Shown in pieces: positions 1,259-64,000 of a DNA stretch of 64,000 nucleotides. This DNA comes from a virus (lineage: Duplodnaviria; Caudoviricetes): IMG/VR virus record IMGVR_UViG_3300021255_004360, positions 3,350 through 67,349 of that record, one strand, 5' to 3'. The position numbers were made by a program, and so were the translations under genes. Below the pieces are notes generated by a model. That model was not told the DNA's origin. It saw only the letters and a list, made by a program, of their open reading frames with translations, and did not search any database. Positions within the stretch are counted from its first letter, which is position 1; every line of letters begins with the position of its first letter.

Positions 1259-2089
1259 ATGTTAGAATATTATAAAACACAATTGACACAGATGGGTAAG
1301 TGACTAAATCCTAATTTTAATATAGATAACCCTAAAACCATACAAGAGAAAATACAGTGGCTTAAATTGTATGATTGTACACCCTTAAAAACAAAGTGTG
1401 CGGATAAAATAAAAGTCCACGATTATTGTGAAGAGAAATTAGGCAAGGATATTTGCGTACCAATCATTAAAATATATAACAAAACAGACGAAATAAACTG
1501 GGAAGAGTTGCCAGATAGGTTTGTTATTAAATGTAATCACGGAAGTGGTATGAATATTATTGTCAAGGATAAGAAATTGTTAAACAAACAAGACGCTGTA
1601 AACAAACTTAACATCTGGATGCGTACAGATTTCGCTTTTCAGAACGGATATGAATATCACTATCACGACATTGAAAGAAAAATTTTTGCTGAAAGTTTTA
1701 TTGGCAAAGATAAAGGTGATTTGGTGGATTATAAGTTTTCGTGTTTTAATGGTGTTCCAAAAATATTGCAAGTAATGTGTGATAGATATTCTGGTAGGTT
1801 AAGACTTAATTATTATGATATGGATTTTAAACCTTTATATTGTAGTAGAAACGACCATCCAGCCAATTATAATATTACTGACGAAAAGCCAAATGGTTTT
1901 GATTTGATGGTTGGGTATTCTAAAATACTATCAAAGGATTTCAAATATGTTAGGGTGGATTTTTATGAAGTTAACGGCGTAGTATATCTTGGAGAGTTGA
2001 CATTTACACCAGGTAGTGGTTTTTTTAAATACAATGACGATAAGTGGTCACTGTTGTTTGGTGAGTGGTTGGATTTAAATAAAAATTAA
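1259..2089 (+). CDS. TupA-like ATP-grasp protein (one in-frame TGA at 1301)
   Basis: Reading TGA as Trp extends the 1367 ORF to ATG 1259 and restores the typical N-terminal NPKTIQEKIQWLKLYD. Also FVIKCNHGSG, DYKFSCFNG, YVRVDFY and GELTFTPGSG. Confidence 0.85.
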
Positions 2090-2102
2090 AAAAAGAAATA
2101 TT

Positions 2103-2606
2103 ATGGTTAAATATATGCCAGAAGACACTCAGGTCGTGTTCAGAGAAATACCTGATGAAATAACATTAGCAATTAATATCACTAATTGTCCACATCATTG
2201 TGAAGGGTGTCATTCACCTTATCTTAGGGAAGATATTGGAGAAGTATTGGATATTAAAACCATTGACGATTTATTGAAACGCAATGATGGTGTTACATGT
2301 GTCTGCTTTATGGGTGAGGGAAAAGACCCAGAATCCTTACATAAATTAGTAACACACATTAAGAAAACTTATAAAACAACAGCAATTGCACTATACACGG
2401 GCGCTGACGATGTAGAAGATGACTTTTATTGGGATAATTTGGATTATATCAAAATAGGGCATTATGATAAAAACTTTGGACCAATTGATAATCCAAACAC
2501 AAATCAAAGGCTATATATCGGTTGTGCGCTTTGCGGTGGTGTGGTTGAAGTGAACGGTGTTAAAAGATTTGGGTGGAAAGATATCACAGATAGTTTTTGG
2601 AAATAA
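2103..2606 (+). CDS. nrdG: Anaerobic ribonucleotide reductase activating enzyme (radical SAM, short Bacteroidota-like type)
   Basis: VVFREIPDEITLAINITNCPHHCEGCHSPYL with CxxxCxxC; CVCFMGEG; YIKIGHY...GPIDNPNTNQR. Confidence 0.9.
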   Translation: MVKYMPEDTQVVFREIPDEITLAINITNCPHHCEGCHSPYLREDIGEVLDIKTIDDLLKRNDGVTCVCFMGEGKDPESLHKLVTHIKKTYKTTAIALYTGADDVEDDFYWDNLDYIKIGHYDKNFGPIDNPNTNQRLYIGCALCGGVVEVNGVKRFGWKDITDSFWK

Positions 2607-2626
2607 AGAAAAAACGTGTATCTTTG
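2596..2626 (+). promoter_or_regulatory. Bacteroidota primary-sigma promoter upstream of NADAR
   Basis: TTTG (2596-2599), 19-nt spacer, TATCTTTG (2619-2626). Exact fit to TTTG-N19-21-TAnnTTTG, 14 nt before ATG 2641. Confidence 0.75.
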
Positions 2627-2640
2627 TAAAAAGATTATAT

Positions 2641-3138
2641 ATGAAAGAGATTGCTGGTACTAAAGTATTTGGAAAATATGTCTGTTTTTGGGGTAGTGTT
2701 TTTTCCAATTTTGCTCCTTGTAATATAGAAGCACAAGGTCATACTTTTAAAACATCTGAACAGTATTTTATGTGGCAGAAAGCAATGTATTTTGGCGATG
2801 TCGTAATTGCTGATGCTATTTTAAATGCAGAAGAGCCTAGGCTTGCGAAAGAGTTAGGCCGTAGGGTTAAAGGATATGATGATGAAGCGTGGAGCAAGGT
2901 TCGTTTCAATGCAATGTACAAAGCCGTTTTTGCGAAGTTCTCACAAAACAAAAAATACAAGGAAATTATCATTGACAAAATGTTTGATGGTAAGAACTTT
3001 GTTGAGGGTTCACCAGTAGACAATGTATGGGGTGTTGGTATTAGATGGGATGACCCTATGATTAAGGATGAATCTAAATGGATGGGAGAGAATCTTCTTG
3101 GTAAAGTATTAGATAAAGTTCGTGAAAATCTTTTATAA
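2641..3138 (+). CDS. NADAR (YbiA-like) family protein
   Basis: FSNF...TSEQYFMWQKA, AKELGRRV, KFSQN, EGSPVDNVWGVG and GENLLGKVL. Start moved to ATG 2641, after the promoter. Confidence 0.9.
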   Translation: MKEIAGTKVFGKYVCFWGSVFSNFAPCNIEAQGHTFKTSEQYFMWQKAMYFGDVVIADAILNAEEPRLAKELGRRVKGYDDEAWSKVRFNAMYKAVFAKFSQNKKYKEIIIDKMFDGKNFVEGSPVDNVWGVGIRWDDPMIKDESKWMGENLLGKVLDKVRENLL

Positions 3139-3140
3139 CA

Positions 3141-3962
3141 ATGGAAGAATTACCACAAAAAGTCGTAGTTGGGTGTATATGTGAGAGGCTTGGTAACATC
3201 ATGTTCCAGATTGGTGCATATATTACCTATGCCAAAAGATATAATAGAGTCTTATTTCTTGCAATAAACGAGCATGACAAGCAAAAGTTAAAGGAATATC
3301 GTAACTATTTTGAATTGTTAGATAGGTTCAAATTTCTTGATATAAAAGAACTACATCATAAGTATAAAAATATTGGTTTTTATTCCGAAACGCCAAAGTT
3401 TGACTATGAGCCAATACCAGATTGTTCAAATGATATTATTTCACTAGTTGGGTATTGGCAGAATGAGGATTATTTTGACAAGGACTTAGTTAAGGGATTC
3501 TTTAGACCGTCAGATGAGTATAAGAATCTTATTCTCGAAAAATACGGTGATTTATCTGAGGCAACATCAATTTCAGTTAGACACGGTGATGATTATGTGA
3601 AGCAGCAGGATTTTTTCGTAGTACCAAGCGCTAAATGGTATGAAGATGCGTATAATACTTATTTCCAAGGGACAAAGGTTATTATTACCAGTGATGATAT
3701 AGAATGGGCTAAGGAGAATATACATATTAAGGATGCGATTTTTGTAGAAGAAGGTGATAAAGTTAATGTATTTTGGGATTTGTTCACTTGTTCTTTATGT
3801 AAGAATCATATAATATATCCTGGTACTTATGGCTGGATGGGGGCGTGGCTTGGTGAGAGAGAAGATTCGAAAGTTATTTGCCCTGATAAGTGGTGGGGTC
3901 CGAAGAATCAAGGAATTTCTGAAAATATTGTACCAAAAAGATGGCTTAGATTTAAGCTGTAA
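3141..3962 (+). CDS. GT11 family alpha-1,2-fucosyltransferase-like protein
   Basis: RLGNIMFQ, GYWQNEDYF, SVRHGDDY (cf. HxRRGDY), SDDIEWAKEN, CKNHII and TYGWMGAWL. Confidence 0.85.
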   Translation: MEELPQKVVVGCICERLGNIMFQIGAYITYAKRYNRVLFLAINEHDKQKLKEYRNYFELLDRFKFLDIKELHHKYKNIGFYSETPKFDYEPIPDCSNDIISLVGYWQNEDYFDKDLVKGFFRPSDEYKNLILEKYGDLSEATSISVRHGDDYVKQQDFFVVPSAKWYEDAYNTYFQGTKVIITSDDIEWAKENIHIKDAIFVEEGDKVNVFWDLFTCSLCKNHIIYPGTYGWMGAWLGEREDSKVICPDKWWGPKNQGISENIVPKRWLRFKL

Positions 3963-3986
3963 TATTTCATGTTTTCAATTGTATGG

Positions 3987-4023
3987 AAAAAACACTTCAG
4001 TCAATAAGATTGGGGTGTTTTTT
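3987..4023 (+). terminator. Intrinsic terminator, possibly bidirectional
   Basis: AAAAAACACTTCAGTC / loop AATAA / GATTGGGGTGTTTTTT hairpin with G-U pairs, just after the GT11 stop. Confidence 0.65.
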
Positions 4024-4055
4024 GTTGATTTTTACATACTTAATTCATATCTTTA
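4024..4055 (+). promoter_or_regulatory. Near-consensus Bacteroidota-type promoter
   Basis: GTTG, 20 nt, TATCTTTA. Followed by AAAAGATTAT, as in the 2596 promoter. Confidence 0.5.
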
Positions 4056-4066
4056 TATAAAAGATT

Positions 4067-4945
4067 ATGTTTATGGTTAAAGTATTAGTATGTTGTATTG
4101 TAAGAGATGAAAATCAATATCTCAGGGAGTTTGTGGAATATTATAAAAAGATTGGTGCTGAGAACGTTATTATTTTTGATAATAATGTTACTGGTGGTGA
4201 GAATGTAGAAGACGTTATTAAGGATTATATTGATAACGGTTTTGTGATTCTTAAAGATTATAAGGATAAAAGAATTTGCCAATTACAATCATATCAAGAG
4301 TGTTATGATGATTATGGTGACAAGTATGATTGGATTTGTTTCTTTGATTGCGATGAGTTCCTTACATTTAGGAATAAGAGGATGACAATGCCAGAGTTTT
4401 TCTCAAATAAGAGATTTGATGGATACGATATGATTCACGTTAACTGGATGTTATATGGCGATAATGATTTGGTACGTAATGATGGAAGACCAGTGCTTGA
4501 ACGTTTCAAAAAACCAATGATGCCGTTTAATAAAAAAGTAAAATATCCCTTCCCAGAAAATAATCACATTAAAGCCATTGTTAGGGGTGGATTAAAAGGT
4601 GTTGTTTGGAAGGGTGTTTCACATACACCGTCAGAACCGCTTACTTGTTGTGACCCTGTTGGAAAGCCATGTAAATCAACATCTCCTTTCAATGATTATA
4701 ATTTTTCTGAGATGTGGCTGGCTCATTACACAACGAAAACAGCCGAGGAGTTTGCATACAAAATAAAACGTGGATTCCCAGATACAGCACCAGGAAGAAG
4801 AGAGGAGATAGACATGGCCAAAAGATTTTTCAAGTATTGTAAAATTACACCAGAAAAGGTTGAGGTTATTAAACAAATAACAGGAATTGATTTGAATCTT
4901 GAAGGTTTTGACTGTGTAATTTTCCAAAAATCAATTGTGGATTAG
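4067..4945 (+). CDS. GT-A fold glycosyltransferase (GT2-like/GT92-like)
   Basis: CCIVRDENQYLREFVEYY, IFDNN, WICFFDCDEF (DxD motif), KAIVRG and HYTTKTAEEF. Ends TAG. Confidence 0.8.
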   Translation: MFMVKVLVCCIVRDENQYLREFVEYYKKIGAENVIIFDNNVTGGENVEDVIKDYIDNGFVILKDYKDKRICQLQSYQECYDDYGDKYDWICFFDCDEFLTFRNKRMTMPEFFSNKRFDGYDMIHVNWMLYGDNDLVRNDGRPVLERFKKPMMPFNKKVKYPFPENNHIKAIVRGGLKGVVWKGVSHTPSEPLTCCDPVGKPCKSTSPFNDYNFSEMWLAHYTTKTAEEFAYKIKRGFPDTAPGRREEIDMAKRFFKYCKITPEKVEVIKQITGIDLNLEGFDCVIFQKSIVD

Positions 4946-4966
4946 TTAACTTGAAAAAACATTGTT

Positions 4967-5387: not shown

Positions 5388-7352
5388 ATGGAGAAAAAAA
5401 TATCATACCTTGACAGAACCTACGACAATTATAGGAGTTCTCTTATTGAGTTGTCAAAAATATATTACCCAGATTTGGCAAAGTCTTTTGACGATGCTTC
5501 TGTTGGGTCATGAATGATTGACTTGAATGCTGCAATTGCAGATGAATTGTCTTATCACATTGACAGAGTATTCCAAGAAACAAACATAAACAGTGCCACG
5601 AAAGCATCATCTGTTTATGCAATGGCAAGGAGTGCTGGGTTTAAGATTCCTGGCCCAAAAGGGGCTATGGCTTTAATAACATTTTCATGTACTTTACCAC
5701 TTAACAGCAGCCAATCACCTGATATGACATATGCTCCTACCATTAAAAAAGGTACAAAAGTTGCTTCTGGGTCACAATATTTTGAGTTGATGTCAGATGT
5801 TAATTTTGCAGAACAGTTTGATGAAAATGGTGTGAGCAACAGACTTTTTTATCCAGTAAGAAACTCAAACAACGTCATAGTGTTGTATAAGGTAACAAAA
5901 ACTGCTATGGTTGTTGCGGGTGATACAAGAATTTACAAGAAAACCATAACTTCAAGAGATATTGTTCCTTTCATGGAGATTGTGATTCCAGTTGAAAAGG
6001 TTATGAATGTTGAATCAGTATTGGTAAAGGATGGTGTTAGTTTTCAAACAAATCCAACGATGGGTGAGTTTTATGACTATCGTGAGAACTTCCAAGATTC
6101 AAAAGGCAGACAAGTAAGTAAGTTCTTTGAAGTTGATTGTTTGGCGCAGCAAGACATTTGGAAGGAAAAACTCGTAAGTAACCAACCAGACGGAACCGCT
6201 GTGGTGGACGTTGCTTATAATACCGCTGGAACTGGACAATATTATTATATAACGAAAGGTGAGTGGAAACCTGTGCATCAAAAATACATAACAGAGTTTA
6301 CTGATAACGGATATTTGAAAGTTATATTTGGTGCTGGAAGTGACTATTCATTACCAGATACTTCTGAGTTTGCTAAATATCAAATGTCTAAAATGGTGAA
6401 CAATAACGCTCTTGGAGTATTACCGAGCGCAAATACAACGGTGTTTATACTTTATCGCGCTGGCGGTGGAAAATCAAGCAACGTTTCACCAGGAGCAATC
6501 AACAAAATAACATATCTTAATGTTGAATTTGCTGGTACGATAGCAAATACGGATGTAAAGGGCACGAGTTCTGTAAAGGAAAGTATTCGAATAGAAGATA
6601 GTAGTGCCAGTGTTTCAGGAAAGGACATGCCTACTGTTGAAGAAGTAAGAAATATGATTAAGTATTATGTCGGCTCACAAGACAGGTGTGTAACTATCAA
6701 GGATTATGTTAGCCGCGTGTTGATGATGCCCCCAAAATATGGTACACCATTCCGTGTAAGCGGTGCAGAGGGAAATAATAAGGTAATGCTTTATTTGCTT
6801 GGCGTTGACCATGAAGGGCATCTTGATACCACAATACCAGAGCCACTTGTCAGTAACATTGAGAAATATCTTGACAATTATAGAATGATTAATGACTTTA
6901 TCGAGTTAAAGTCTGGAAGAATCATTAACCTTTCATTTGACATTGATATGTATGTTGATAAAAACTACAACAAATCCGATGTTGCAGCAGAAGTGGTAAG
7001 AATCTTGAGGGATTATATGGATATCAATAGGCACGAAATGGGTGATGATATTTTTGTTGGTGATATTGAGAAGGAGATTAGTAAGGTTGATGGCGTAATT
7101 AATGTTGTTGACATTAGAGTGTATAACGAATTCAATGACGGTTATTCATCCACAAAAACCAATCAAGAGTTTGCAAGTGGCGATGATGGTTGTGATATTG
7201 GCGGTGATGCTCGTGTCACATTTACTTCACCAACAGGTGGTAGGCAAATAGACCTTGTTGTAGCAGATAACATGCTTATTTCGGATGGTGACAGTATGTT
7301 TGAAATAAAATACCCACAAAGGGACATTAGATTGAGAATTAAGGAAAGATAA
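5388..7352 (+). CDS. Baseplate wedge protein, T4 gp6-like (654 aa; TGA at 5511)
   Basis: Read-through gives MEKKISYLDRTYDNYRSSLIELSKIYYPD...DASVGS[W]MIDL. Also YRAGGGKSSNV, SGKDMPTVEEVR and QDRCVTIKDY. Confidence 0.85.
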
Positions 7353-7603
7353 TGGGCTGTGCGTGTAAAGTTGGCAGAGATTTAAGTTATCTACAAAAAA
7401 AATATGGTGTAAAGAATGTGCCAGATAATAAAAGTACAAATATCAGACAGAATTCACGTATTTTTTTGGAGAAAGTTCTATTGTCATTAATACTGTTACC
7501 CTTTATCCCAATTTTACTTATTTGAACGATTATCAGGGGTTTTACAAATCACAAACCAATCAACATATCAAAATTATTTAAACTTGAACATGTCAGACAG
7601 TAA
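7352..7603 (+). CDS. Small membrane protein missing from the ORF track (83 aa; TGA at 7523)
   Basis: TAATG-coupled to gp6. MGCACK start; hydrophobic VLLSLILLPFIPILLI[W]TII; ends TAA, overlapping the next ATG at 7590. Confidence 0.65.
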
Positions 7604-10600: not shown

Positions 10601-11234
10601 TGGTATTTCACAAAGGCATGAAATAATCTCTCGTTTGGAAAATGTTGGAAATGAAGTTGTTCCAAGATACAAGCATTTAGTGCCTACAGGATTAATTTCG
10701 AATGATGATATTATGGGTGGTGATTTTAGAACAATGTTCGCAACATTAAATCACAATAGATTATTATCAACATCCTTTGATGATACAAAGGGTGGTACTG
10801 GATATTACAAATATGACTTCTCTTATATGCGTACAAACGGTTTCAATGGTGTAATGCAGCCATATACACCACAAGATGGCGAATATAATAAACATTTGGT
10901 TGAAGGCACAGACTTTGTGGTTGAAAGACAATATGTAAATCCAGAAGAGACAACAGAACAAGAAATTGATGATATAGTTGCGTCTTCATATACGAGAACA
11001 CTAGAAAACGCCAATAGGGATTATGTCATGTTTAGATTGGGGTTGGATGACTTGTCAAGAACCAATGTATTAAGTAAGTTCGTGAAAAGTGAAAATGGTA
11101 TGTGGTTTATGCCACAATACGAGAACTCTTTCTATTTCTACTTCGGTCTTAAATCTGGCGCAACAGCTTTGGATGAATTAAATAAACAATTTTTCTCTAA
11201 TTGTAGTAATAATACAGACACCGATATTGAGTAA
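7590..11234 (+). CDS. Large baseplate-region virion protein (1214 aa; TGA at 7995)
   Basis: ORFs 7584 and 8058 are in frame and join as LSNDA[W]IEVFDKYYKYTVRTNHAGDYMI. Located in the baseplate operon; no specific family recognised. Confidence 0.7.
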
Positions 11235-20499: not shown

Positions 20500-20500
20500 T

Positions 20501-26500: not shown

Positions 26501-27235
26501 AACAATTTCCAAGCCAATTTTGATTCATGGAGTGCTACAACGCTTGTAAACAGAATAACAAGCTTTGATTATACGAGGACATATACTTCACAGGCAACTC
26601 AACCATATTATGGTGAGACTAATTTATCGCTTTTGACTTCTGTGTCTTCAACTAACAATAGTTTCAGTGCAAGTTTAGATACAACACAAAAAACCATTAC
26701 TTTAACAACAACTAAAAATACTGGTAGTAGTGTTAAATCCACACAAATTGTGGTTACATATAGTGGGGCAACATATACTTCGGACGAGATTGCACAACCA
26801 TATTATGTTGTTGTTAGTCAAAGTTACAGTGTGTCGAGCGTATCTCTTGGGCAAACCCATGTAGAATGGAGTGGGGATACATATGTTTTAGTTGTAGATA
26901 ATTTAAGAGTGACAGTAACATTTAATAACCCTATGAATGGTAGAAATAAAACATACCACGTGGCGGCAGGACTTAAAGTAAATGGAACGGAAGATGAGGA
27001 AGGTATTAATCTTGAAACTTGGGGTGGTAATACTTATAATTGGGCCGTACCGTCAAACTCAGGCGCAACCACATTAACAATACTCCATTATGAAATAGAA
27101 ATTTCAGACATTGGTGAGTCAGGCGGTGGGACAATTAACAGTGTACAATTACTTTTTAGATTGGACCCTAGTCAAAGCGATTTAAATTTAAACAAAACGG
27201 GTTCCTCAACATGAGTAACAATACCAGTACAATAA
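20501..27235 (+). CDS. Giant protein with about 14 tandem FN3-like domains plus fibre-type modules (about 2244 aa; 11 TGA)
   Basis: TGA at 20519, 20861, 22358, 22634, 23180, 23291, 24254, 24449, 24854, 25658 and 27212, all in frame, with no TAA/TAG until 27233. Repeating ...W...GY.V...L.P.T.Y.I.V.A pattern. Confidence 0.8.
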
Positions 27236-27247
27236 AAAACAATACAA

Positions 27248-27258
27248 AACTATTTATA
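27248..27258 (+). promoter_or_regulatory. Putative phage late promoter AACTATTTATA
   Basis: Exact copy of the motif, intergenic, upstream of ATG 27307. Confidence 0.6.
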
Positions 27259-27306
27259 AAATAAAACAAATATCTTATAATAAAGATATTAAATGATTAG
27301 AAGAAT

Positions 27307-53600: not shown

Positions 53601-53626
53601 ATTATAAACATATAACATAAAAAGAA

Positions 53627-54478
53627 ATGGCAAAAATTATAGATGAATACGACATCAATGATGGTATTTTGTTAGGTGCGGATGGCTGTTGTGAGGGTAT
53701 TGATATGTGCGATAAATGTGCAGACGATACATGTCTTGATTGTGACACTGATTGTTCTTGTGATAGTCAATGTACACATTGTCAGGGTGAGGGGTGCGAC
53801 TGTAATGACCCAACTGGCCCAATGGGTGAATGTGACCGTGACAATAGCTGCGCTTGTGATGGATATTGTGCTTGTGATGTTTATTGCTCAAAATGTACAG
53901 TACACACAATATGTGACTGTGATGGCGGTGTTTGCAGTTGCGATTCTGTTTGTTCTCCACAAAACGCAACCACATCTGGATATTGTACTTGTAATGGCCA
54001 ATGTACATGCAATGCAGTTTCATGCGCTCAATGTGCCTGTAATGCACAAAGCTGTACAGCACAATGTACTTGTGACGCTGTTTCGTGCACGGCTTTCTGT
54101 GATTGCGATGCTGTTTCATGTGCTGGATATTGTACATGTAATGCTAAAAGTTGTGGCCCAAAATGTACGTGTGATAGTGTTAGTTGCAGCAAATGTACAA
54201 ATCATGGTGCATGTTCCTGTGATACTGACCCTTGTCCACATTGTTTGTGTAATATTCACGTTTGTGCACAATGTACTGCAACTGAATGTACTTCACAAGC
54301 CATATGTGATTGTAACTCTGTTGGTTGTGTACAATGTACTAGTGACGGTGCATGTCCAAGCGTATGTCCAACACAGGTTATGTGTATGTGTCACGAGCAA
54401 GATACTTGCACGTGTGATGTACAATGTACTTGCCACGCTAAAACATGTGCTGTGTGTAACTGTAATGCAGAAGAATAG
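53627..54478 (+). CDS. Cys-rich repeat protein, putative radical-SAM substrate (RiPP-precursor-like; 283 aa)
   Basis: 68 Cys and 20 CxC motifs after a 20-aa Cys-free acidic N-terminus (MAKIIDEYDINDGILLGADG). A-rich start context; ends TAG; adjacent to the rSAM/SPASM gene. ORF is secure; function is inferred. Confidence 0.75.
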   Translation: MAKIIDEYDINDGILLGADGCCEGIDMCDKCADDTCLDCDTDCSCDSQCTHCQGEGCDCNDPTGPMGECDRDNSCACDGYCACDVYCSKCTVHTICDCDGGVCSCDSVCSPQNATTSGYCTCNGQCTCNAVSCAQCACNAQSCTAQCTCDAVSCTAFCDCDAVSCAGYCTCNAKSCGPKCTCDSVSCSKCTNHGACSCDTDPCPHCLCNIHVCAQCTATECTSQAICDCNSVGCVQCTSDGACPSVCPTQVMCMCHEQDTCTCDVQCTCHAKTCAVCNCNAEE

Positions 54479-54526
54479 TACTTTACTTTCAAATAATTTT
54501 GTTTTATATTATATAAAAAATAGAAT

Positions 54527-56113
54527 ATGGATGTATTTTCACAACCAGTTGGATATGCTATTAATTTTTTAGGTGGCCAACAGAAAAGAGACGATAGTGT
54601 AAAGTATCGTAGATTAAAATATTTAGTAGATGTTGATTTAGAAGATAACAGAAAAGCAATCTACAATTTGTTAACCAGTTGTGGTGTTGTTTTGAATCAA
54701 GACGAGTTGAAACAGATAGAGGATTTTAAGAAAGACTCAATTTGTGTTAACTATTTGATTGAGAATTATTTCTTCGTACCAGAGGATTATGACGAGAAGG
54801 CTGAGGTAGATAAATACAGAGAAGAATCTGTTATCAAAAAGAAAACATTCTTGGTCACACCAACTGAGTTTACTATTTTACCAACTACGGATTGTAATGC
54901 CAGATGCTTTTATTGTTTTGAGAGGGGCAAAAAAATAACCGTCATGACAATGGATATGGCAAATAAAGTTGCTGATTATATTATAGATTGTTGGAATAAA
55001 ACCAAAGAGACGATTGTTCTAAGATGGTTTGGTGGCGAACCACTATACAACATGAAAGCAATTGATGTCATTTGTAAGCGGTTAACAGAGAATGGTGTTG
55101 ATTTCAAATCAAGTATCATATCCAATGGTTATCTGTTTAGTGAGGATGTAGCAATAAAGGCTGTCAACGATTGGAAAATGACACACGCACAAATAACGTT
55201 GGATGGTACAAAAGATGTTTACAATAAAACAAAGAGTTACATTTATGATGATGAGAATCCGTTTGAGGTTATTATGCGTAACATGGAATCCATGTTGAAA
55301 GCTGGTTTCGGTATAAGCATCAGAATGAATGTTGGTACACATAACGGTGATGATTTGAAAGAGTTGGTATCATATCTTAATGAAAGGTTCAAGAATGATA
55401 TGAATCGAAAATTCTCTGTATATGCTCATCCAATATTTGAAACTGGTATGGATGATGAAACCAAGAGAACGCCAGAGGAACGTGCATTGGTTTATCAGAA
55501 ACTGGAAGAATTGGAACAACACATGAAGAGTATTGGCATTTCATTAGGTATAGGAAGGTTAGGCGGTTTAAGAACAAGACACTGTATGGTGGATGGTGGA
55601 AAAGCCATACTTATTCTACCAGATGGAAAACTTGGACTATGTGAACATTATACCGATTCTGAATATTTTGGACAACTTGGAGACGATAGAGAATCCTGGG
55701 ATTGGGGAGAGATTAAATCCTTGGTAGAACAGACAGATATGTTACCAGAATGTGGTGATTGTGTTCTTTATCCTACCTGTTATAGATTGAAGAAATGCTT
55801 GGATGAAATTTTCTGTGACAAGTATGTTGTTGATTGGACAATGAGGCGTACAATAGAGAATATCAAAGCAAAAATAAACTCATTCTATAAGAATGCGAAT
55901 AACAATTGTTCTTGTGGGAACAACCAAACACCAAGATATGATTTATATGCTGGCAAGATAGAGTTCAACAACCTTATTTCTTTTGTTATGCTCCAAGAAG
56001 CAAAAATCAAAAGAATTAGTGAGAAATTAGGCATTGATTTTAGCGATTTAGACACGGAATATAATGAAAAACAAAAGAATGTTCCGAAACAAGGAACACA
56101 AAGTCAAGAATAA
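54527..56113 (+). CDS. Radical SAM enzyme with SPASM domain, peptide-maturase type (528 aa)
   Basis: CNARCFYC (CxxxCxxC), WFGGEPL, SNGY and QITLDG. SPASM CMVDGGKAILILPDGKLGLC (C-x13-G-x4-C) then CGDCVLYPTCYRLKKC...C. About 110-aa N-terminal extension (IYNLLT...YLIENYFFVPEDYDE) sits where RRE domains usually occur. Confidence 0.92.
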   Translation: MDVFSQPVGYAINFLGGQQKRDDSVKYRRLKYLVDVDLEDNRKAIYNLLTSCGVVLNQDELKQIEDFKKDSICVNYLIENYFFVPEDYDEKAEVDKYREESVIKKKTFLVTPTEFTILPTTDCNARCFYCFERGKKITVMTMDMANKVADYIIDCWNKTKETIVLRWFGGEPLYNMKAIDVICKRLTENGVDFKSSIISNGYLFSEDVAIKAVNDWKMTHAQITLDGTKDVYNKTKSYIYDDENPFEVIMRNMESMLKAGFGISIRMNVGTHNGDDLKELVSYLNERFKNDMNRKFSVYAHPIFETGMDDETKRTPEERALVYQKLEELEQHMKSIGISLGIGRLGGLRTRHCMVDGGKAILILPDGKLGLCEHYTDSEYFGQLGDDRESWDWGEIKSLVEQTDMLPECGDCVLYPTCYRLKKCLDEIFCDKYVVDWTMRRTIENIKAKINSFYKNANNNCSCGNNQTPRYDLYAGKIEFNNLISFVMLQEAKIKRISEKLGIDFSDLDTEYNEKQKNVPKQGTQSQE

Positions 56114-56135
56114 ATTAGTTTACTGTACATTAAAT

Positions 56136-56165
56136 GGGAGTGAAGAAATTCGCTCCCTTTTTTTG
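56136..56165 (+). terminator. Intrinsic terminator closing the fibre/Cys-protein/rSAM unit
   Basis: GGGAGTGAA-GAAA-TTCGCTCCC hairpin followed by a long T run. Confidence 0.85.
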
Positions 56166-56200
56166 TTTTTATAGAAAAAATCACTATTTTTAAACATAAA

Positions 56201-56632
56201 ATGGAAGGAAAAAAACATAGCATATCTATAGGAGAAAATCTTTATAAGGATTTGAAAGAATATTGTGAACTTAATTCGTTGAAAATGAATGAGTTTGTAG
56301 AATCTTTGTTGAAAGATGCGTTTATGGTTGAGAAATATGGTGATGCACCGTTCTTTACAAAACCAAACATTAGTGAGTCAGAAGTAAAACGGGAAACAAT
56401 TGTTGCTGTTCCACTTAAATCGGATGTTGTTGACAGCAACGGTAGAATATATACGGAACAAGCAATTTCGGAAGCCCTTAAAAACTTTAAACAAGAAACA
56501 CAAATTACAGTTAACGAAAACACAGGGGAAGTGTTTTTAGACACAAACCATACATCAGTACAAGAGGTGACGATTCCAGAGAAACAAGTTACAGAAAACA
56601 AACCAAAAAGGAAAGTAACCAAATTAAAATAA
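56201..56632 (+). CDS. Hypothetical protein with a possible ribbon-helix-helix N-terminus (143 aa)
   Basis: KKHSISIGENLYKDLKEYC...MNEFVESLL fits a beta-alpha-alpha pattern. Confidence 0.5.
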   Translation: MEGKKHSISIGENLYKDLKEYCELNSLKMNEFVESLLKDAFMVEKYGDAPFFTKPNISESEVKRETIVAVPLKSDVVDSNGRIYTEQAISEALKNFKQETQITVNENTGEVFLDTNHTSVQEVTIPEKQVTENKPKRKVTKLK

Positions 56633-56635
56633 AAT

Positions 56636-59044
56636 ATGGCTAAAAAACAGCAAATAGTAATAGGAAAAAATGCTCAGGTACGTATTCAATGGAACGTATC
56701 TTCGGTAGATTACACCGATGAAAAGAAAGATGCGATAAGGGAATTATTCGCCAAAAAATACAATTTACCAGTTTCCAAGGTGAAAGTGGAGCCTAATTTT
56801 ATGACTGGTATTTGTGGTGAGGAAATATCACTTAACAAGGACACCATACAGAACATCAATGACCCGAAATTCCATCAGCAATTATATGTGCAGTATTTGG
56901 AAGATAAGAAAGCAAAGGGTGAGATTGAGGATTATGATTTGGATGAAATTTTAAAAATTGACAGCCAGATTAATACCCTTATTGATTTCAGTACTTATGA
57001 TAAAGGTAGGAGATATACTTTAAAGTGGCTTGATTGGGATAATTTTTTGGCTTTCGGTGAGGGCAACCATGTTGATTTCACGGACTTTAAAGGCTTGATT
57101 TTACTGAACAGTATTCCAGACAATCAAGGTGGTAAATCAACATTTGCTTATGACATATTACATTTCCTTTTCTTTGGTAGAACCAATTCTGGTAAGATGA
57201 AAGTGCTTGATAGGGCATTTAATCGTCATCTTCCAGAGGCTAGAAAATGTAAGGTAGAGGGGTGTATAGAAATTGATGGACTTAACTATATTATTAGGAG
57301 AACATTAACACGTAGTGCTTATAACGGTAAGAACGCTACAAGGACGGTAACGCAAAAGGTAGAGTACTTTAGAGTGCTTGATAATGGCGAGTTGGAAGAA
57401 TTGGAAGATATTGATAATCTCAATGAGCAAACCAGTGTAAAGACCACGCAAGCCATTAAGGAAGCAATCGGTAATGAAAGGGACTTCGACCTTGTTATTT
57501 CTGCTAATTCAGATAACTTGAAGGAACTTATTTCTCTTAAAGATACTGAGAGAGGCAGATTGTTAAGTCGCTGGATTGGTTTGCTCCCATTGGAAGATAA
57601 AGACATTAAAGCCCGTGAGAAATGGAATAAGGAAATCAATGTAAATCGTTATTGCACAAGATATAATAGTGAAGTCGTAAAACAGGAAATTGAAAACCTT
57701 ACTGCTCAGAACGAGGAAAACGAAAAACAAATCAAGAAATATGAGAAGATTGTTAGTGATTGTGAAGAAAAGATTAAGAAAGAAAATGTAACAAAAGATG
57801 CACTTCTTTCATCAAAGAAAACAATTGACAATAACTTGATGAAGGTTGATGTGCATACATTGGAAACGAGAATTGCTGACATCACACAACAAGGATTGAA
57901 AAAGACGGCAGAAAAAAAAGCACATGAGTCTGTTATTGAACAGATGAAAGATGTTAAAATTGTTGATGAAAACGTTTACGGTGAATTGAATAAGAAACAT
58001 CAGAAATGTGTTGAGTATATCGCTTCTTTGAAGTCTGATATTAAAAACTTGAGAGATACAAACAAAAAACTTACAGAAAGTGAATATTGTCCTACTTGTA
58101 AGAGAAAATTTGAAAATGTAGATAATAGTGCTATCGTTAAGCAAAACGAAAAACTTATATATGACAAGATTCAAGAAGGAATTATGATAAGTGAAGAAAA
58201 AAAGAATCTTGAAACAGAGTTAGCCAAACTTGATGAAGCCAGAAAACTTTATTATGAGAAGAACAAACATGAATTAGCTGTTTCGCAGTGCAATGTTGAA
58301 ATTGAGCGTCTTCGGAATGAACTTAAAGACTGTAACGCAACGAAGAAGGAGATAATAGCAAATAAGTCTGCTATTGAAGAAAACAACAAGATTGACAACG
58401 CCCTCAATATTGCAAACGCCAATATCAAAAATGAAGAAAACATTAGAACAAGCGCAAAAGAAACAATAGTTGCTTTTAAGAAAGATATTGAACGGAATAA
58501 CACAGCCATCACAGAACGACAGATTGTGATAACCAAGATAGAGGAAGAAACAAAAATCGAAAAGAACTGGAAGATATACCTTATGCTTGTTGGTAAAGAT
58601 GGCGTTGGTAAGATGGTACTTAGGCACACATTACCTATTATCAATAGCGAACTTCACAGAATTCTTGAAGATGTTTGCGATTTTGATGTTGAGGTTACTA
58701 TGAATGAGAAAAATGATGTCGATTTCATTTTAATCTGTAAAGATGATGGTGTAAGGCAAGAATTGTGTGCTGGTTCTGGTTTCGAGCAAACCGCAGCAGC
58801 ACTTGCATTGCGTGTTGTATTAGGCAACATGAGTGCTTTGTCAAAGCCTCCGTTCCTCGTCCTTGATGAAATTTTAGGTGGTGTTGCGAAGGTAAATTAT
58901 GATAATATGAGAAAACTTTACGAGAAAATTTCCCAATATTATAAATTTATAATGCAAATAACCCATTTAAGCGACATTGCTGATTGGCACGATAGAACCA
59001 TCACAATAGTCAAGAAGAATCATGTTTCCAGGGTTGAGTTGTAA
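56636..59044 (+). CDS. SbcC/Rad50/T4 gp46-like SMC-family recombination ATPase (802 aa)
   Basis: Walker A NQGGKST, coiled coils, zinc hook CPTC, signature-like GSGFEQ, Walker B LVLDEILG and H-loop ITHL. Confidence 0.9.
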   Translation: MAKKQQIVIGKNAQVRIQWNVSSVDYTDEKKDAIRELFAKKYNLPVSKVKVEPNFMTGICGEEISLNKDTIQNINDPKFHQQLYVQYLEDKKAKGEIEDYDLDEILKIDSQINTLIDFSTYDKGRRYTLKWLDWDNFLAFGEGNHVDFTDFKGLILLNSIPDNQGGKSTFAYDILHFLFFGRTNSGKMKVLDRAFNRHLPEARKCKVEGCIEIDGLNYIIRRTLTRSAYNGKNATRTVTQKVEYFRVLDNGELEELEDIDNLNEQTSVKTTQAIKEAIGNERDFDLVISANSDNLKELISLKDTERGRLLSRWIGLLPLEDKDIKAREKWNKEINVNRYCTRYNSEVVKQEIENLTAQNEENEKQIKKYEKIVSDCEEKIKKENVTKDALLSSKKTIDNNLMKVDVHTLETRIADITQQGLKKTAEKKAHESVIEQMKDVKIVDENVYGELNKKHQKCVEYIASLKSDIKNLRDTNKKLTESEYCPTCKRKFENVDNSAIVKQNEKLIYDKIQEGIMISEEKKNLETELAKLDEARKLYYEKNKHELAVSQCNVEIERLRNELKDCNATKKEIIANKSAIEENNKIDNALNIANANIKNEENIRTSAKETIVAFKKDIERNNTAITERQIVITKIEEETKIEKNWKIYLMLVGKDGVGKMVLRHTLPIINSELHRILEDVCDFDVEVTMNEKNDVDFILICKDDGVRQELCAGSGFEQTAAALALRVVLGNMSALSKPPFLVLDEILGGVAKVNYDNMRKLYEKISQYYKFIMQITHLSDIADWHDRTITIVKKNHVSRVEL

Positions 59045-59071
59045 AAATAAAAGAGGAAAGAATATGAAAAA

Positions 59072-59785
59072 ATGCCTATTAAAAAGAGAGTTGTGGTCGA
59101 TGATTATGATTCACAACAAAAAAGATATTTTGATGAAATTTCAAAAACAAAACCACTAACAAAAGAAGAAGAATTTTTACTTTGGAAAGATTATAAAGAG
59201 AACAAAAACATAGAAGCAAGAAACAAATTAGTAGAAGCAAACCTTAAGTTTGTAGCAACAATTGCCAACTCATATAGAGGACGTGGTTTATCATATTCTG
59301 ATTTAATCGCAGAAGGTAATATCGGGCTTATTAGAGCCGTAGATAAGTTTGAAGCCACGAGAGGATATAAGATGATAAGTTACTCTGTCTGGTGGATAAG
59401 ACAAGCGATATTGGAGGCCATAGAAAAAAGAAATAATATCAATGGCGATGAACTACCAAAAGATTATGAAGACCAAGTACCTGATGAAGATGAAAGCACG
59501 TATTTTAGTAAAGAAGAAACCCCTTCAAGATTCGTGGACGATGAAGATGATAAAACGGATAAAAAACAAGCAATTGCTGAGTTGTTAAATGTTTTGGATG
59601 ACCGCGAGGCTGAAATAATAACAAGATATTATGGATTACTTGAAGACCCAATAAACTTAGAGGACATTGGTAATGAGTTGAATTTAAGTAAAGAAAGGGT
59701 TAGACAAATAATGGAAAAGGGGCTAAAAAAAATGCGCAGTGCTTATATGGAACGACAAAGTTTTGTGAGGATAAACAGAAACTAA
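59072..59785 (+). CDS. Sigma-70 family RNA polymerase sigma factor (regions 1.2, 2 and 4; region 3 reduced)
   Basis: LTKEEE...[30 protein letters not shown]...[17 protein letters not shown] and [18 protein letters not shown]. Confidence 0.9.
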
Positions 59786-59790
59786 AATTA

Positions 59791-59801
59791 AACTATTTAT
59801 A
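59791..59801 (+). promoter_or_regulatory. Putative phage late promoter AACTATTTATA
   Basis: Exact motif, 23 nt before ATG 59825. Confidence 0.6.
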
Positions 59802-59824
59802 TAATACGATAAATTTAAAAAAAC

Positions 59825-60298
59825 ATGGCAAGTAAGAAAACTACCACAAAAAAAGAAATGAAGATTGTTGATGACGTAAAAGAGACTAAAGTAGAAGAAG
59901 AAATCATTAACGATACTGAAGAAGTCAAAGAGGAAATCAAAAACGAGGAAGACACCTTGACAGAGGCTAATACAGACGAAACACCAACCACAAGTGAAAT
60001 TGTGGAAAATATGTCAGAAGCAATTGACACCTTGGGAGAAACAGAAGAAACGCAGCAAGAAGTCAATGATGTTGATGAAATTAAGAACGAGGTTGAAGAA
60101 TTGAATGATACTTTTAAAGAACTTAATGAAAGTAAAAAAGTGTTTGAAGAGAAAATCAACGCAAGTCCAGAAAAAGCCGAGGAGATTATTCAACAAGAAA
60201 TTAAAAAAGTCACCGACATTAAAAATAAGATTAAAAAAAGAAATATAGCCCAACAACGTATGACAATGTTATGGAACGGGCAAGATTTTGGAGGTTAA
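59825..60298 (+). CDS. Acidic coiled-coil hypothetical protein (157 aa)
   Basis: Glu/Lys-rich ORF downstream of the late motif. Confidence 0.65.
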   Translation: MASKKTTTKKEMKIVDDVKETKVEEEIINDTEEVKEEIKNEEDTLTEANTDETPTTSEIVENMSEAIDTLGETEETQQEVNDVDEIKNEVEELNDTFKELNESKKVFEEKINASPEKAEEIIQQEIKKVTDIKNKIKKRNIAQQRMTMLWNGQDFGG

Positions 60299-60299
60299 T

Positions 60300-60812
60300 A
60301 TGGCAAACAACGAAGAAATTAGAGATATGCTGAATAGGATAAGAGTTATCCAAGAGCATAAAAGAGGTGTAGAAAACACAAAAAAAGTACTCGAAGAAGA
60401 GGCTAATAACGGCAAACATGAAAATGGTATTGCTATTACCAACGACCCAAAGTTTGGTAATAATGTTTTAGCAAGCCAAATTGAAATGTTTAGAAGTTCC
60501 GTTGATGGTGGTGCTGAATTTACAGACCCATCAGAAGAAAATGTCGCTGAAAGCCCTCTGATTTATATGCCAGATGATAAAAATCTTGTATTCAGTGGTA
60601 CAATTCCGAGTTTGAATAATTTAAAATGGCAGTTTAAACTTAGAACAAATACTGGCGATGGCTGTTTCATATGGACGGATGGATTTATTCTAAACGAAAA
60701 GAATCTAAAGACTTTACATAAACTTCAAGGATTCTATGAAAACTGGAAGAATGATTGGCAGAAAGAATCTGGAGACCTTGAAAGAATGGGAAAGGCAATA
60801 CAAAAAGACTAA
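60300..60812 (+). CDS. Hypothetical protein (170 aa)
   Basis: ATG 60300 lies 1 nt after the upstream TAA; ends TAA. Confidence 0.65.
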   Translation: MANNEEIRDMLNRIRVIQEHKRGVENTKKVLEEEANNGKHENGIAITNDPKFGNNVLASQIEMFRSSVDGGAEFTDPSEENVAESPLIYMPDDKNLVFSGTIPSLNNLKWQFKLRTNTGDGCFIWTDGFILNEKNLKTLHKLQGFYENWKNDWQKESGDLERMGKAIQKD

Positions 60813-60840
60813 AAACAATTAACCCCTATAAAAAGTATGT

Positions 60841-61410
60841 ATGTCTAAACAATTGTATATTGATAACTGGAATAATAGTAATGCAAAGATACAAATTAAC
60901 AATGCTATCTCAAACAGATATACTGCACTAAATGGTTTAACGTCTATTGAATTACCAGACAACAAGTCACATGCTGTTCCTGCTTTTCTTGCAACGGCAA
61001 TGGGTTTTGGAAAAGGTAGTGATACAAGTTGGTATCAGTTGTTCATACCGCCATCATATGACAGAGTAATAAAAGTAAGAATATCCGACCACTTGTCTTC
61101 ACCTTCAGAATGGCCACCAATTGAAGATAGTCTCCCAAATAAAAGGTATTCAATTGTGATTTTCAATAGGCATAGTATGAACATTCAGTATAAACAAGGA
61201 ATTAAATATATAGATTGGAATACTTATACTGTAGATGGTATTGACGTATGTGAACTCGTCATATATTGTGAATTAATTCCACAAATATGGACATTTCTGT
61301 ATAAAGCACTTCTATGCCTTTATAACGGGGGAAATCCAGAAGATAATACATTAACAGATTTTATCGCAAATATTGAACAGGACACAAGTGTTTCAACTTT
61401 AATATCATAA
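60841..61410 (+). CDS. Hypothetical protein (189 aa)
   Basis: Intact ORF containing IKVRISDH; less acidic than its neighbours. Confidence 0.6.
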   Translation: MSKQLYIDNWNNSNAKIQINNAISNRYTALNGLTSIELPDNKSHAVPAFLATAMGFGKGSDTSWYQLFIPPSYDRVIKVRISDHLSSPSEWPPIEDSLPNKRYSIVIFNRHSMNIQYKQGIKYIDWNTYTVDGIDVCELVIYCELIPQIWTFLYKALLCLYNGGNPEDNTLTDFIANIEQDTSVSTLIS

Positions 61411-61443
61411 TAATAGCAATTCCTAATTGTTTTATGGAACATA

Positions 61444-61473
61444 TCGGTGACTCTTATGAGTCACTGATTTTTT
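61444..61473 (+). terminator. Intrinsic terminator, followed by a second hairpin at 61480-61507
   Basis: TCGGTGACTC-TTAT-GAGTCACTGA plus TTTTTT. Second stem AAAGTCCAG/CTGGACTTT. Confidence 0.75.
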
Positions 61474-61599
61474 CATAGAAAAGTCCAGCCTTTTTCGACT
61501 GGACTTTAACAATTTATTTAATGGGATGAATTGCATCAACCTTGATTGTTGTTTAAAACATTACTCACCAGTTGTCAATGTTAGTTTTTTAGATAAACC

Positions 61600-61610
61600 A
61601 ACTATTTATA
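61600..61610 (+). promoter_or_regulatory. Putative phage late promoter AACTATTTATA
   Basis: Exact motif, 18 nt before ATG 61629. Confidence 0.6.
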
Positions 61611-61628
61611 AGTAAATAATATATAGGT

Positions 61629-61853
61629 ATGAAAGTTTTAGTAACTGAAGAGCAATTACATAGGCTAGTAACGGAGGAGTTCGTTAAGACGTGTGACCTT
61701 GACAAAAAAGTCAAGAACGCTCTTTCTGATGCTATTAGGAACGACAAAAATTTTGAAAAAAGAGTAAAAAACATCGCTGCGGATTGTATTAAGACGATGT
61801 ATAGAATACTCTTCCAAAGAAGTAATTTTTATGATTCAGATTTAAGGAACTAA
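61629..61853 (+). CDS. Hypothetical protein (74 aa)
   Basis: Downstream of the late motif; TAATG-coupled to the next gene. Confidence 0.6.
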   Translation: MKVLVTEEQLHRLVTEEFVKTCDLDKKVKNALSDAIRNDKNFEKRVKNIAADCIKTMYRILFQRSNFYDSDLRN

Positions 61854-62548
61854 TGATAGATATGACAAAAATATACGAGCGTTATTTTCCTGATAGGATA
61901 ACAAGGCAGGGTTTCATTGGTAATGCGTTGGTTTACATCAAGCAACTACTCAACTCCCCAACAACTGCCAAGGTTAGTGACTATCTCGAAAATTATGGTG
62001 TCACATCCGAAAAATTATTGAAAGAATTGCTCGATAATCGTATCTTGATTAGAAGTGAAAAAATACGTAGGGATGATGACGGTAAAGATTCATTCTGTAT
62101 ATCATACAAGCCAGGTAAGAAGAATGTAAATTATAATTCTGTGTTAAGAAATCTGTATATTAAATGATTTGAAAACTATAAGGTAGATAACGATATGTAC
62201 TTAAAAGAGGAAGACGGCGGCTATGCTGGTACAAATGGTGCTTCAAGCGCAGCGGACGTGAATGATACGGCTCCGATAATGCCTTTAACAATCAAAAACA
62301 AAAAGGGAGAAAATGAAGAGCCAATTATTAGGAGAACATTTGCGGAAGGCAAGAAAAGAACAATCATAATTACAAATAAGCAAAAGAAATATCTTGAAGA
62401 AGTAACTTCAACAATGTCTGTTGGTGGTGGTGTTGAAGGAAGTGTAGAAGGTGGTAACAGTTATGCGTATGATGCCCCTGCTTTCCTTGACGCTGATACG
62501 GCAGACCATAAAGATATGATGAAAAAAAGTTGGCAAGGAGAAATTTAA
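61853..62548 (+). CDS. Hypothetical protein (231 aa; TGA at 62165)
   Basis: Track ORFs 61853 and 62195 are in frame and join as NLYIK[W]FENYKVDNDMYLKEE. Confidence 0.65.
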
Positions 62549-62549
62549 A

Positions 62550-62744
62550 ATGAGTCAGTATAAAGATGTTTTTAACAAAGATGCATACAAGAAACTTGTT
62601 GACATCAATAAGGAAATTGAAGAAGAGAAAAATTCATTTGAACCAGACGCAGAAAAACTTCAAAATCTTTATATGAAACAAGTAATGCAATCAATGTTTT
62701 TAAACGACATGATTATTGGACCAAGAAACTTTAGACCATATTAA
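62550..62744 (+). CDS. Hypothetical protein (64 aa)
   Basis: Starts 1 nt after the upstream TAA; ends TAA. Confidence 0.55.
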   Translation: MSQYKDVFNKDAYKKLVDINKEIEEEKNSFEPDAEKLQNLYMKQVMQSMFLNDMIIGPRNFRPY

Positions 62745-62766
62745 TAATACATATAAACGAAAAGAA

Positions 62767-63576
62767 ATGGAAACAGTTTACAAAGTAAGCGATATTAAGA
62801 AACTTATCCAGGAAAGTTCTCAGGAATTCAAGGCAAAACTTGGAGACAACGTAGAAAATGAGGATAAGAAAAATAGCAGGGAGGCTTACGATAAATCTGC
62901 ACAAAGAGCAAAGGAGTATAATGGCAAGTTTAAGGCTCCTGAAAAAGCAAAGTATGAAAAAGTTGATGGGAATAAAACACTCACTGACGTAAGGTTTGAT
63001 TTTGAACCAAGCAAAGAATATAAGGATAAGGCTAAAGAACAAGCCAAAGGATATACTTCTGTTGATGAGAAAAATAACGGTATTGAAAAAGCTGGTGCTG
63101 AGTTCAATGATGATGCTTGGGAAGGAATCAAGAAAGCTGGTGAGAAAATGCATGACAATGAAGACAATTTTGCGCATTTAGGTATCTGGGGTCACAATAT
63201 GCCTAAAGATATGATTGGTTATCCTGACCTTTATGAAAACAAGAATGTAAAAACTATCTTCTTCAAAAAGACAACATTCTTGACAGAGGGTCATATGATT
63301 TCAAGAATCCCAGACGAATTCAAAAATGAAGGGTCCATATTCAAAATGAAAGATAAAACAGGTAACAGTTACCTAGTTGAATGGAGTGACAATAAAGCAA
63401 ATATTATTGGCCACGAAAACAAGAAAGGCTTGGAAGAATCAGTTGATAGAATGAAGAAACTGATGGGATACAAGCCTGAAGAGTACTTTGCAACTTCAAC
63501 ATCTAGCCAAAGGTTAAATGAAAATGAAGATACTTTCCAAAAACAATTGAATAACATCCGTAAACTTATGAAGTAA
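62767..63576 (+). CDS. Charged hypothetical protein, possibly head/core-associated (269 aa)
   Basis: ATG 62767 in A-rich context; Lys/Glu-rich with EESVDRMKKL and RLNENE. Role is a guess. Confidence 0.55.
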   Translation: METVYKVSDIKKLIQESSQEFKAKLGDNVENEDKKNSREAYDKSAQRAKEYNGKFKAPEKAKYEKVDGNKTLTDVRFDFEPSKEYKDKAKEQAKGYTSVDEKNNGIEKAGAEFNDDAWEGIKKAGEKMHDNEDNFAHLGIWGHNMPKDMIGYPDLYENKNVKTIFFKKTTFLTEGHMISRIPDEFKNEGSIFKMKDKTGNSYLVEWSDNKANIIGHENKKGLEESVDRMKKLMGYKPEEYFATSTSSQRLNENEDTFQKQLNNIRKLMK

Positions 63577-63577
63577 A

Positions 63578-64000
63578 ATGGCAGAAAATAAGATTCCAGA
63601 AGCATCTAACAATGCTGGTAACACTATTGGCTGGTTAGAAAAGATTTTGAGCCTAAAAGAACGCTATGGTGTTAAAAACATCATATCAAGTTTATTAATT
63701 CTGTTTATTGCAATTATTGTTGGATGAGTGGCATTTAACCCGTCTGCGTTTATTGAACGTGTTGAAAGAATACAAACAGAAAAGCATGTGATGGTAATTG
63801 AAAAGCGTAGACAGATTGACCCGCTTATTAAAGCAGATTTGGTTGATTTACGTAGTGAGGTGAATGCATCAAGAGCCTTCATTTTTGAAGCTCATAATGG
63901 TGGTAGCAATTTGAACGGGTTACCATTTCTTTACGTGGACATGACATATGATGAACCGCGTCACGATTTAGTTAGAATCCAAGATGAATATAAGAACATA
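63578..64000 (+). CDS. Putative holin, T4 gpT-like topology, 3'-partial (TGA at 63725)
   Basis: Short N-terminus, one hydrophobic helix IISSLLILFIAIIVG[W]VAF, then a soluble domain (RAFIFEAHNGGSNLNGLPFLYVDMTYD) open to the window end. Missing from the ORF track. Confidence 0.55.

Follow-up and report, generated by a model that had tools for sequence, protein, structure and literature searches.

We examined a 64,000-nt stretch of viral DNA (Duplodnaviria; Caudoviricetes), hereafter the window, which corresponds to bases 3350-67349 of the single 67,349-bp contig IMGVR_UViG_3300021255_004360 in IMG/VR, and found that TGA is very probably a sense codon for tryptophan (genetic code 4) in this phage, presumably read by a suppressor tRNA in a host that keeps the standard code. 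This meaning was proposed in a preliminary description made from the sequence alone. It is borne out by an orthologous tryptophan column, by TGA/TGG exchanges among close relatives, by the rank of tryptophan in substitution log-odds and by a Trp-like tRNA with a UCA anticodon in a near-identical relative, and pairs of paralogous repeats lend it further support. Fragments that lie in the same frame and on the same strand under the standard code (code 11) merge into a tight gene array under code 4.

The code-4 gene map initially comprised 33 genes with 42 in-frame TGAs, and their stops were 25 TAA, 7 TAG and no TGA. Curation against orthologous gene calls in two related loci (L025 and L034; related loci carry L numbers throughout) showed that the TGAs at 2551, 63548 and 63569 lie upstream of the true starts of the NADAR and holin-like genes, and added one TGA at 7523 in a small conserved gene (7352-7603). 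The curated total is 40 in-frame TGA codons across 13 genes and ~20,800 codons, the same number as first described (42 - 3 + 1), and TGA makes up about 16% (roughly one in six) of the tryptophan codons. The earlier statement that no gene ends in TGA is true but partly circular, being true by construction under code 4. As an independent check, none of the 23 genes that have no internal TGA ends in TGA, their stops being TAA or TAG throughout; many TGA-ending genes elsewhere had been named beforehand as contrary evidence. With ~17% of the long open reading frames (ORFs) of standard-code relatives ending in TGA, zero of 23 would be expected ~1.5% of the time. A comparison of coding density, also proposed at the outset, gave a crude ORF cover of the window of 0.89 under code 11 and 0.98 under code 4, a gain that is small because TGA is so sparse.

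The forty TGAs lie within intact, conserved genes under purifying selection. After a TGA the open frame continues for a median of 159 codons, versus 5 after TAA or TAG gene ends, and coding potential, scored by codon usage with TGA-free genes as the training set, is positive beyond 40 of 42 TGAs versus 5 of 31 true gene ends, the two exceptions being the TGAs at 20479 and 27212. A scaffold in ENA (STEW19-1_SAMEA5383789_METAG-scaffold_48; 93,463 bp), the near-identical relative mentioned above, aligns to 46665-60826 and 61865-64000 at 93.5-96% nucleotide identity. Downstream of the TGAs in the 3750-residue fibre gene, substitutions between the two fall 81/51/148 on the three codon positions, a third-position bias, and 550 of the 817 codons that differ between the window and the scaffold are synonymous. 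The scaffold keeps 11 of the 12 aligned TGAs, including seven of the eight in the aligned part of the fibre gene, as well as all 42 TGGs; the twelfth TGA (52251) is TAT (Tyr). Contigs of four other runs match 15268-30018, mostly at 95-99% identity and with indels that are net multiples of three, and no TGA codon is affected among the 40 of 907 differences listed, a subset that is not proof of every TGA. As TGG to TGA is a single transition, one could regard the TGAs as nonsense mutations in a decaying element or as errors of a poor assembly. The chance of this is negligible: all 40 interruptions are TGA with no in-frame TAG or TAA and no frameshift, indels in the contigs of other runs preserve the frame, and pseudogenes and assembly error are excluded because close relatives share both the TGAs, found again in independent assemblies at 75-97% identity, and the signal of purifying selection that continues downstream of them. 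In the ATP-grasp gene, the match to Pfam ATPgrasp_TupA begins at residue 30 and the first code-11 start after the TGA is residue 37, so that translation must pass through the TGA, or begin upstream of it, to cover the domain.

The residue inserted at TGA can be read first from the repeats of the giant genes. The TGA/TGG repeat pairs listed in the preliminary description (50484 opposite 47103 and 48246, 51132 opposite 45858, 23180 opposite 21572, 23291 opposite 21683 and 22634 opposite 20008) were recovered letter for letter. It had also placed four TGAs at the conserved FN3 tryptophan position, and we find all four there: 22358, 22634 and 24854 by hidden Markov model alignment of the protein's own FN3 repeats, and 24254 (motif ITLR-TGA) by eye. 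Paralogue alignments restricted to 30 residues on each side of a TGA invariably have tryptophan opposite TGA where they are strongest (E 1e-19 to 1e-28), and tryptophan, tyrosine, phenylalanine and some noise where they are weaker. Among these sites, 23180 and 23291 face TGG in repeat copies (E 1e-19 to 1e-23), 19195 stands opposite a paralogous tryptophan, and 50484, 51132 and 52434 stand opposite TGG in the fibre's own repeats; the paralogous repeats in which TGA faces TGG are 55-79% identical. A self-BLAST of whole proteins with X at TGA returned no tryptophan and was set aside as misleading, its alignments of Thr/Ser-rich repeats being out of register.

Orthologues in standard-code phages point to the same residue. 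The codon at 5511 in the baseplate wedge gene is TGG in 20 of 20 standard-code orthologues (18 IMG/VR relatives at ~44% identity plus L028 and L032), and at 36084 the nearest standard-code relative (L019, 51% identity) has TGG and three less similar ones encode Lys; 12956 falls in a variable column with Ala or Ser in distant orthologues. A candidate TAG recoding in L019 was rejected, as the single TAG is an ordinary stop with the next gene then in frame. When BLOSUM62 log-odds were summed over 16 sites, tryptophan ranked first (42.1), followed at a distance by tyrosine (19.9). Glycine (-33.2) and cysteine (-27.2), the residues whose appearance in TGA columns had been named beforehand as contrary evidence, both scored strongly negative. 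Glycine deserves mention as the meaning of TGA in code 25, which is used by phages of Absconditabacteria and Gracilibacteria, also rumen dwellers, and such phages do exist (preprint 10.1101/2021.08.26.457843). It is nevertheless a scarcely credible reading here, ranking 18th of 20 residues with no glycine in any conserved column opposite TGA, and the body and the discriminator G73 of the tRNA described below match tRNA-Trp rather than tRNA-Gly.

Exchanges between close relatives offer a further line of evidence for tryptophan. TGA and TGG replace each other in both directions at 7523, 7995, 9726 and 27319: the codon at 7523 is TGA in the window and TGG in L024, L025 and L026, that at 7995 is TGA in L025 and TGG in L024, and the window's TGG at 9726 is TGA in L024. 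For the 903-residue gene, L033 (47% identity) has TGG at 27319, TGA at 27352, and TGA at 27955 after a one-residue gap shift. Every database homologue of this gene is a code-11 fragment, in at least four lineages breaking off just ahead of codon 217, and a search of viral contigs gave no relatives of it. The TGA at 5511 is kept in four contigs from four assemblies at 75-80% identity, that is, across 20-25% protein divergence.

These relatives also delimit the recoded lineage. Database matches with at least 75% identity are code-11 calls truncated at the N-terminus, while those with up to 59% are complete; the standard code is used by relatives whose proteins are at most 60% identical, some of them on 360-410 kb contigs, and ORF cover is unchanged between codes 11 and 4 in 22 related loci. 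Among the relatives compared, the recoding is confined to a sub-lineage nested among standard-code sisters. Two further recoded relatives, P0247 and P0243 (the latter in an NCBI assembly), are known from fragmented gene calls alone.

Following the suggestion in the preliminary description to look for a tRNA-Trp(UCA), TrpRS or a release factor, we found the tRNA in the near-identical relative, and neither TrpRS nor RF1 in the contig or the examined part of that relative. The tRNA(UCA) gene lies at L040:16848-16921 (scaffold position ~71,967), ~22 kb past the point that corresponds to the end of the window. It is 74 nt long, has no intron and no second anticodon-like hairpin, folds into a normal cloverleaf and fits the Rfam tRNA model end to end (71.2 bits). 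Its anticodon arm recurs in 35 viral contigs, comprising 30 tRNA-Trp(CCA) genes, from which it differs only by C34 to U, four tRNA-Cys genes and one more tRNA with a UCA anticodon. Once this arm is masked, tRNA-Trp genes take the first four places among 154 phage tRNAs ranked by similarity, tRNA-Gly and tRNA-Cys being distant, and the discriminator is G73 as in those tRNA-Trp genes, while the tRNA-Cys genes of the same arm pattern have T. The neighbouring genes, which encode a 1765-residue protein, a primase-like protein, a phosphoesterase, ClpP and ThyX, are TGA-free; a search of viral contigs gave no relatives of the primase-like protein. ARAGORN labels the tRNA 'SeC', owing to its TCA anticodon, and UGA might in principle encode selenocysteine, or be passed by untargeted leaky readthrough with no dedicated tRNA. 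Both are extremely improbable. The tRNA has the standard cloverleaf shape, its acceptor stem being 7 bp and its variable loop 5 nt long, while tRNA-Sec is longer and has a long extra arm, and the cysteine log-odds at TGA columns are strongly negative; rare readthrough could not carry a ribosome past the eleven TGAs of one protein.

A derivation of the suppressor from the tRNA-Trp(CCA) of the family itself, part of a six-tRNA array in standard-code relatives (L076-L078), was considered and rejected, since the two are not close and the suppressor is nearer to tRNA-Trp of other phages. Among 155 tRNAs collected from loci L041-L075 by the Trp anticodon-arm pattern, three have a CTA anticodon (amber suppressors, 'Pyl' in ARAGORN), and the one other UCA tRNA (L058) is on a 168-kb contig.

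The TGAs are unevenly distributed over gene classes. In baseplate, fibre and lysis-side genes TGA accounts for 40 of 190 TGA plus TGG codons (21%), versus 2 of 76 (3%) elsewhere (Fisher p = 6e-5); the block 53627-61410 has 26 TGG and no TGA, with all gene ends TAA or TAG. In the mechanism that we propose, the phage would supply its own opal-suppressor tRNA, of the tRNA-Trp type with anticodon UCA instead of CCA, which would read UGA in a host otherwise on the standard code. From the concentration of TGA in baseplate, fibre and lysis-side genes and its scarcity in replication and regulatory ones, it would follow that late virion and lysis proteins are full-length only once the suppressor is active, as in the code-switch model of Borges et al., the timing being inferred; such gating of late genes was proposed there for recoded phages (preprint 10.1101/2021.08.26.457843). 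The first TGAs are skewed to the N-terminus, for example at codons 5, 7, 15, 33 and 42 (12 genes, Fisher-combined p = 0.018 against a uniform placement), which would fit a gate against long truncated fibre products before the switch.

Several points weigh against this interpretation. Roughly half of the columns that orthologues place opposite TGA vary (Q, Y, A, S, M, T, K), so that the case for one particular residue is built mainly on the conserved columns, which have Trp there, and on the swaps between close relatives. On the 67-kb contig, no tRNA (ARAGORN and Rfam), RF1 or TrpRS was found: a permissive Rfam scan of the window gave no tRNA-like match, the 443 nt between the genes at 61410-61853 contain terminator-like hairpins and one small ORF but no tRNA, and TrpRS and RF1 domains are absent from the window's genes and from the relative's scaffold gene calls (examined to 75,728 of 93,463). 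The suppressor for the window's phage is inferred from the near-identical relative, and the TGAs at 20479 and 27212 could still be acting as stops.

The lack of a suppressor tRNA on the contig itself would be compatible with a host that itself uses code 4, for example of the Mycoplasmatota type, with the phage mirroring the host code and no switch at all. Native code-4 bacteria (Mycoplasmatales, Entomoplasmatales) share with this phage the meaning of the codon and a tRNA-Trp with a UCA anticodon. They use TGA genome-wide, in all gene classes and usually as the main tryptophan codon, and native AT-rich code-4 genomes prefer it throughout. Here TGA is by contrast a minority codon limited by gene class and almost missing from early-type genes, the decoder is phage-borne in the near-identical relative, and the sister lineages are on the standard code. 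BACON domains and distant homology to a Flavobacterium phage suggest a Bacteroidota host, and we consider a code-4 host very unlikely. The signs of a host with the standard code, namely the BACON domains, the standard-code sisters and the phage-borne suppressor, are indirect.

The TGAs at 20479 and 27212 each lie six codons before the TAA of one of the two giant genes, and may be relics of earlier stops, with translation now continuing to a back-up TAA. TGA could then have a dual meaning, sense within genes and a working or partial stop at these two places, which would be compatible with its reading as tryptophan. Two end-proximal sites among the 17 TGAs of the two genes exceed the ~0.02-0.03 expected per gene under uniform placement, and former TGA stops would be expected after a recent change because relatives use TGA stops in ~17% of ORFs. 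With the suppressor present, however, both codons would mostly be read through to the TAA, and their placement could be coincidence; overall, a dual meaning seems unlikely. The recoding to tryptophan may still be young. We entertain, while leaning against it, the idea that TGA = Trp arose independently and fairly recently within a standard-code family of T4-like jumbo phages of ~360-410 kb, outside the named recoded clades. A TGA frequency too low for detection by coding density and the possible former stops in two giant adhesin genes would fit such a recent change.

Table 1. Recoded genes of the window, with TGA-free genes of the window and the contig for comparison (positions in the window)
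Gene or feature	Position	Strand	TGA positions	Remarks
Glycosyltransferase gene	3-1247	+	none	Opens the mostly TGA-free block 3-4945
TupA-like ATP-grasp gene	1259-2089	+	1301 (codon 15)	
Baseplate wedge (gp6/J-like) gene	5388-7352	+	5511 (codon 42)	PHROG 219
Small conserved gene, 83 residues	7352-7603	+	7523	84-residue gene at the matching place in standard-code L032
Baseplate-associated gene, 1216 residues	7584-11234	+	7995	
894-residue gene	11234-13918	+	12956, 13418	
BACON-domain giant, 1743 residues	15268-20499	+	15364, 15736, 15910, 16606, 19195, 20479	Six BACON domains (Pfam)
FN3-repeat giant, 2244 residues	20501-27235	+	20519, 20861, 22358, 22634, 23180, 23291, 24254, 24449, 24854, 25658, 27212	Twelve fn3 stretches (Pfam); 11 TGAs
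903-residue gene	27307-30018	+	27319, 27352, 27955, 29644	
859-residue gene	31268-33847	+	33107	Tyr in closest relative, Thr in others
565-residue gene	35013-36710	+	36084	
Thr/Ser-rich repeat fibre, 3750 residues	42348-53600	+	42888, 50484, 51132, 51852, 52251, 52434, 52704, 52722, 52881	Nine TGAs
TGA-free block	53627-61410	+	none	Cys-rich protein, radical SAM enzyme, SbcC/gp46-like ATPase, sigma-70 factor, small genes
231-residue gene	61853-62548	+	62165	TGA kept in L034
Holin-like gene, one transmembrane helix	63578-64000, runs off window	+	63725 (codon 50)	TGA kept in L034; start set from L034 gene calls
DnaB-like helicase fragment (C-terminal part only) and NrdD	upstream on the contig		none	Pfam/PHROGs

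The contig has no terminal repeat, and nearly all of its genes are on the plus strand. Pfam and PHROGs matches also include an NrdG-like protein, a glycosyltransferase cluster, a NADAR protein, a second baseplate wedge protein (gp25) and, on the minus strand, DnaJ. On the strength of this gene content we take the window to be a fragment of a large T4-like myovirus, probably of the ruminant gut; at least half of the sampled words of an 8-kb stretch are present in runs that are labelled as bovine or sheep gut metagenomes and come from several studies in addition to the probable source. Homologues of the baseplate protein, NrdD and the SbcC-like protein are found on contigs up to 360-410 kb, and the nearest GenBank phages, Flavobacterium phage vB_FspM_immuto and a 484-kb uncultured phage, are less than 27% identical.

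Some further features of the window and its relatives were noted. Between recoded genes, 37426-42198 encodes a 1590-residue protein with only two tryptophan codons, no TGA and no convincing family match. The region 42348-56113 holds the 3750-residue fibre with a Cys-rich end domain, then a free Cys-rich protein without tryptophan, then a radical SAM protein (Pfam). In the near-identical relative, a 1488-residue protein that has a domain of glycoside hydrolase family 2 and whose gene carries 10 in-frame TGAs (L037:2526-6992, minus strand) occupies the place of the window's 189-residue gene at 60841-61410, and L037:12325-20466 encodes a recoded protein of more than 2700 residues with LRR_5 repeats and 2 TGAs. 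A standard-code relative whose NrdD is 90% identical has a DnaB-like helicase whose intein includes a LAGLIDADG endonuclease (L028:7375-9882), as well as a DUF723 gene (L028:20744-21673) inserted between the gp25 gene and the gp6-like gene, a junction that has no DUF723 insertion in the window.

That the phenomenon itself is known, as the preliminary description stated, is right (preprint 10.1101/2021.08.26.457843; PMC13037316). Phages with TGA recoding, suppressor tRNAs, close relatives on the standard code and a bias to structural and lysis genes were described by Borges et al. (preprint 10.1101/2021.08.26.457843, later Nat Microbiol 2022). Their Agate and Jade clades share with the window's lineage TGA in structural and lysis genes with replication genes in standard code, a phage tRNA(UCA) (here in the near-identical relative), standard-code relatives in the same family, an animal gut source that includes cattle, and a recoded transmembrane protein in the lysis region. 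These clades are quoted at ~127-210 kb, whereas the standard-code relatives of the window's lineage are on larger contigs (360-410 kb). The code-change module of the Jade type consists of tRNA(UCA), TrpRS and RF1 upstream of the lysis cassette; here the relative's tRNA stands alone among replication-type genes, with no TrpRS or RF1 in the 67-kb contig and ~26 kb of the relative. We do not place the window in either clade, as the contig has no terminase and its GenBank phage matches are all below 27% identity.

A survey of jumbo phages with rumen among its habitats reports TGA recoding with suppressor tRNAs (PMC13037316), and the jumbo background, habitat and type of recoding are shared with the lineage studied here. 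That survey calls recoding at a coding-density gain of at least 10%, compared with the rise in ORF cover from 0.89 to 0.98 in the window, and lineages like this one may be borderline for such filters. Opal-recoded crAss-like phages (Yutin et al. 2021, PMC7886860) also have late genes with TGA as tryptophan, a presumed Bacteroidota host and BACON proteins. They are podoviruses, in contrast to the T4-like contractile-tail baseplate with gp25 and gp6 homologues found here, and the tRNA here is intronless.

The finding is a correct and useful re-annotation, and the kind of recoding is already known. Under the standard code the window splits into dozens of fragments, and the adhesin-like fibres of 1743, 2244 and 3750 residues become visible only under code 4, as do the baseplate protein and the holin-like protein; the broken code-11 pieces are already in public protein databases. 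It adds a well-documented example to a known pattern, with a recoded sub-lineage among standard-code sisters, TGA/TGG swaps between close relatives and an identified decoder tRNA. Specific to this case are the position of the recoded branch within a very large standard-code phage family, the low density of TGA and the two possible former stops. The lineage could be used to study how genetic codes change in phages and how such a change serves in the timing of late genes.

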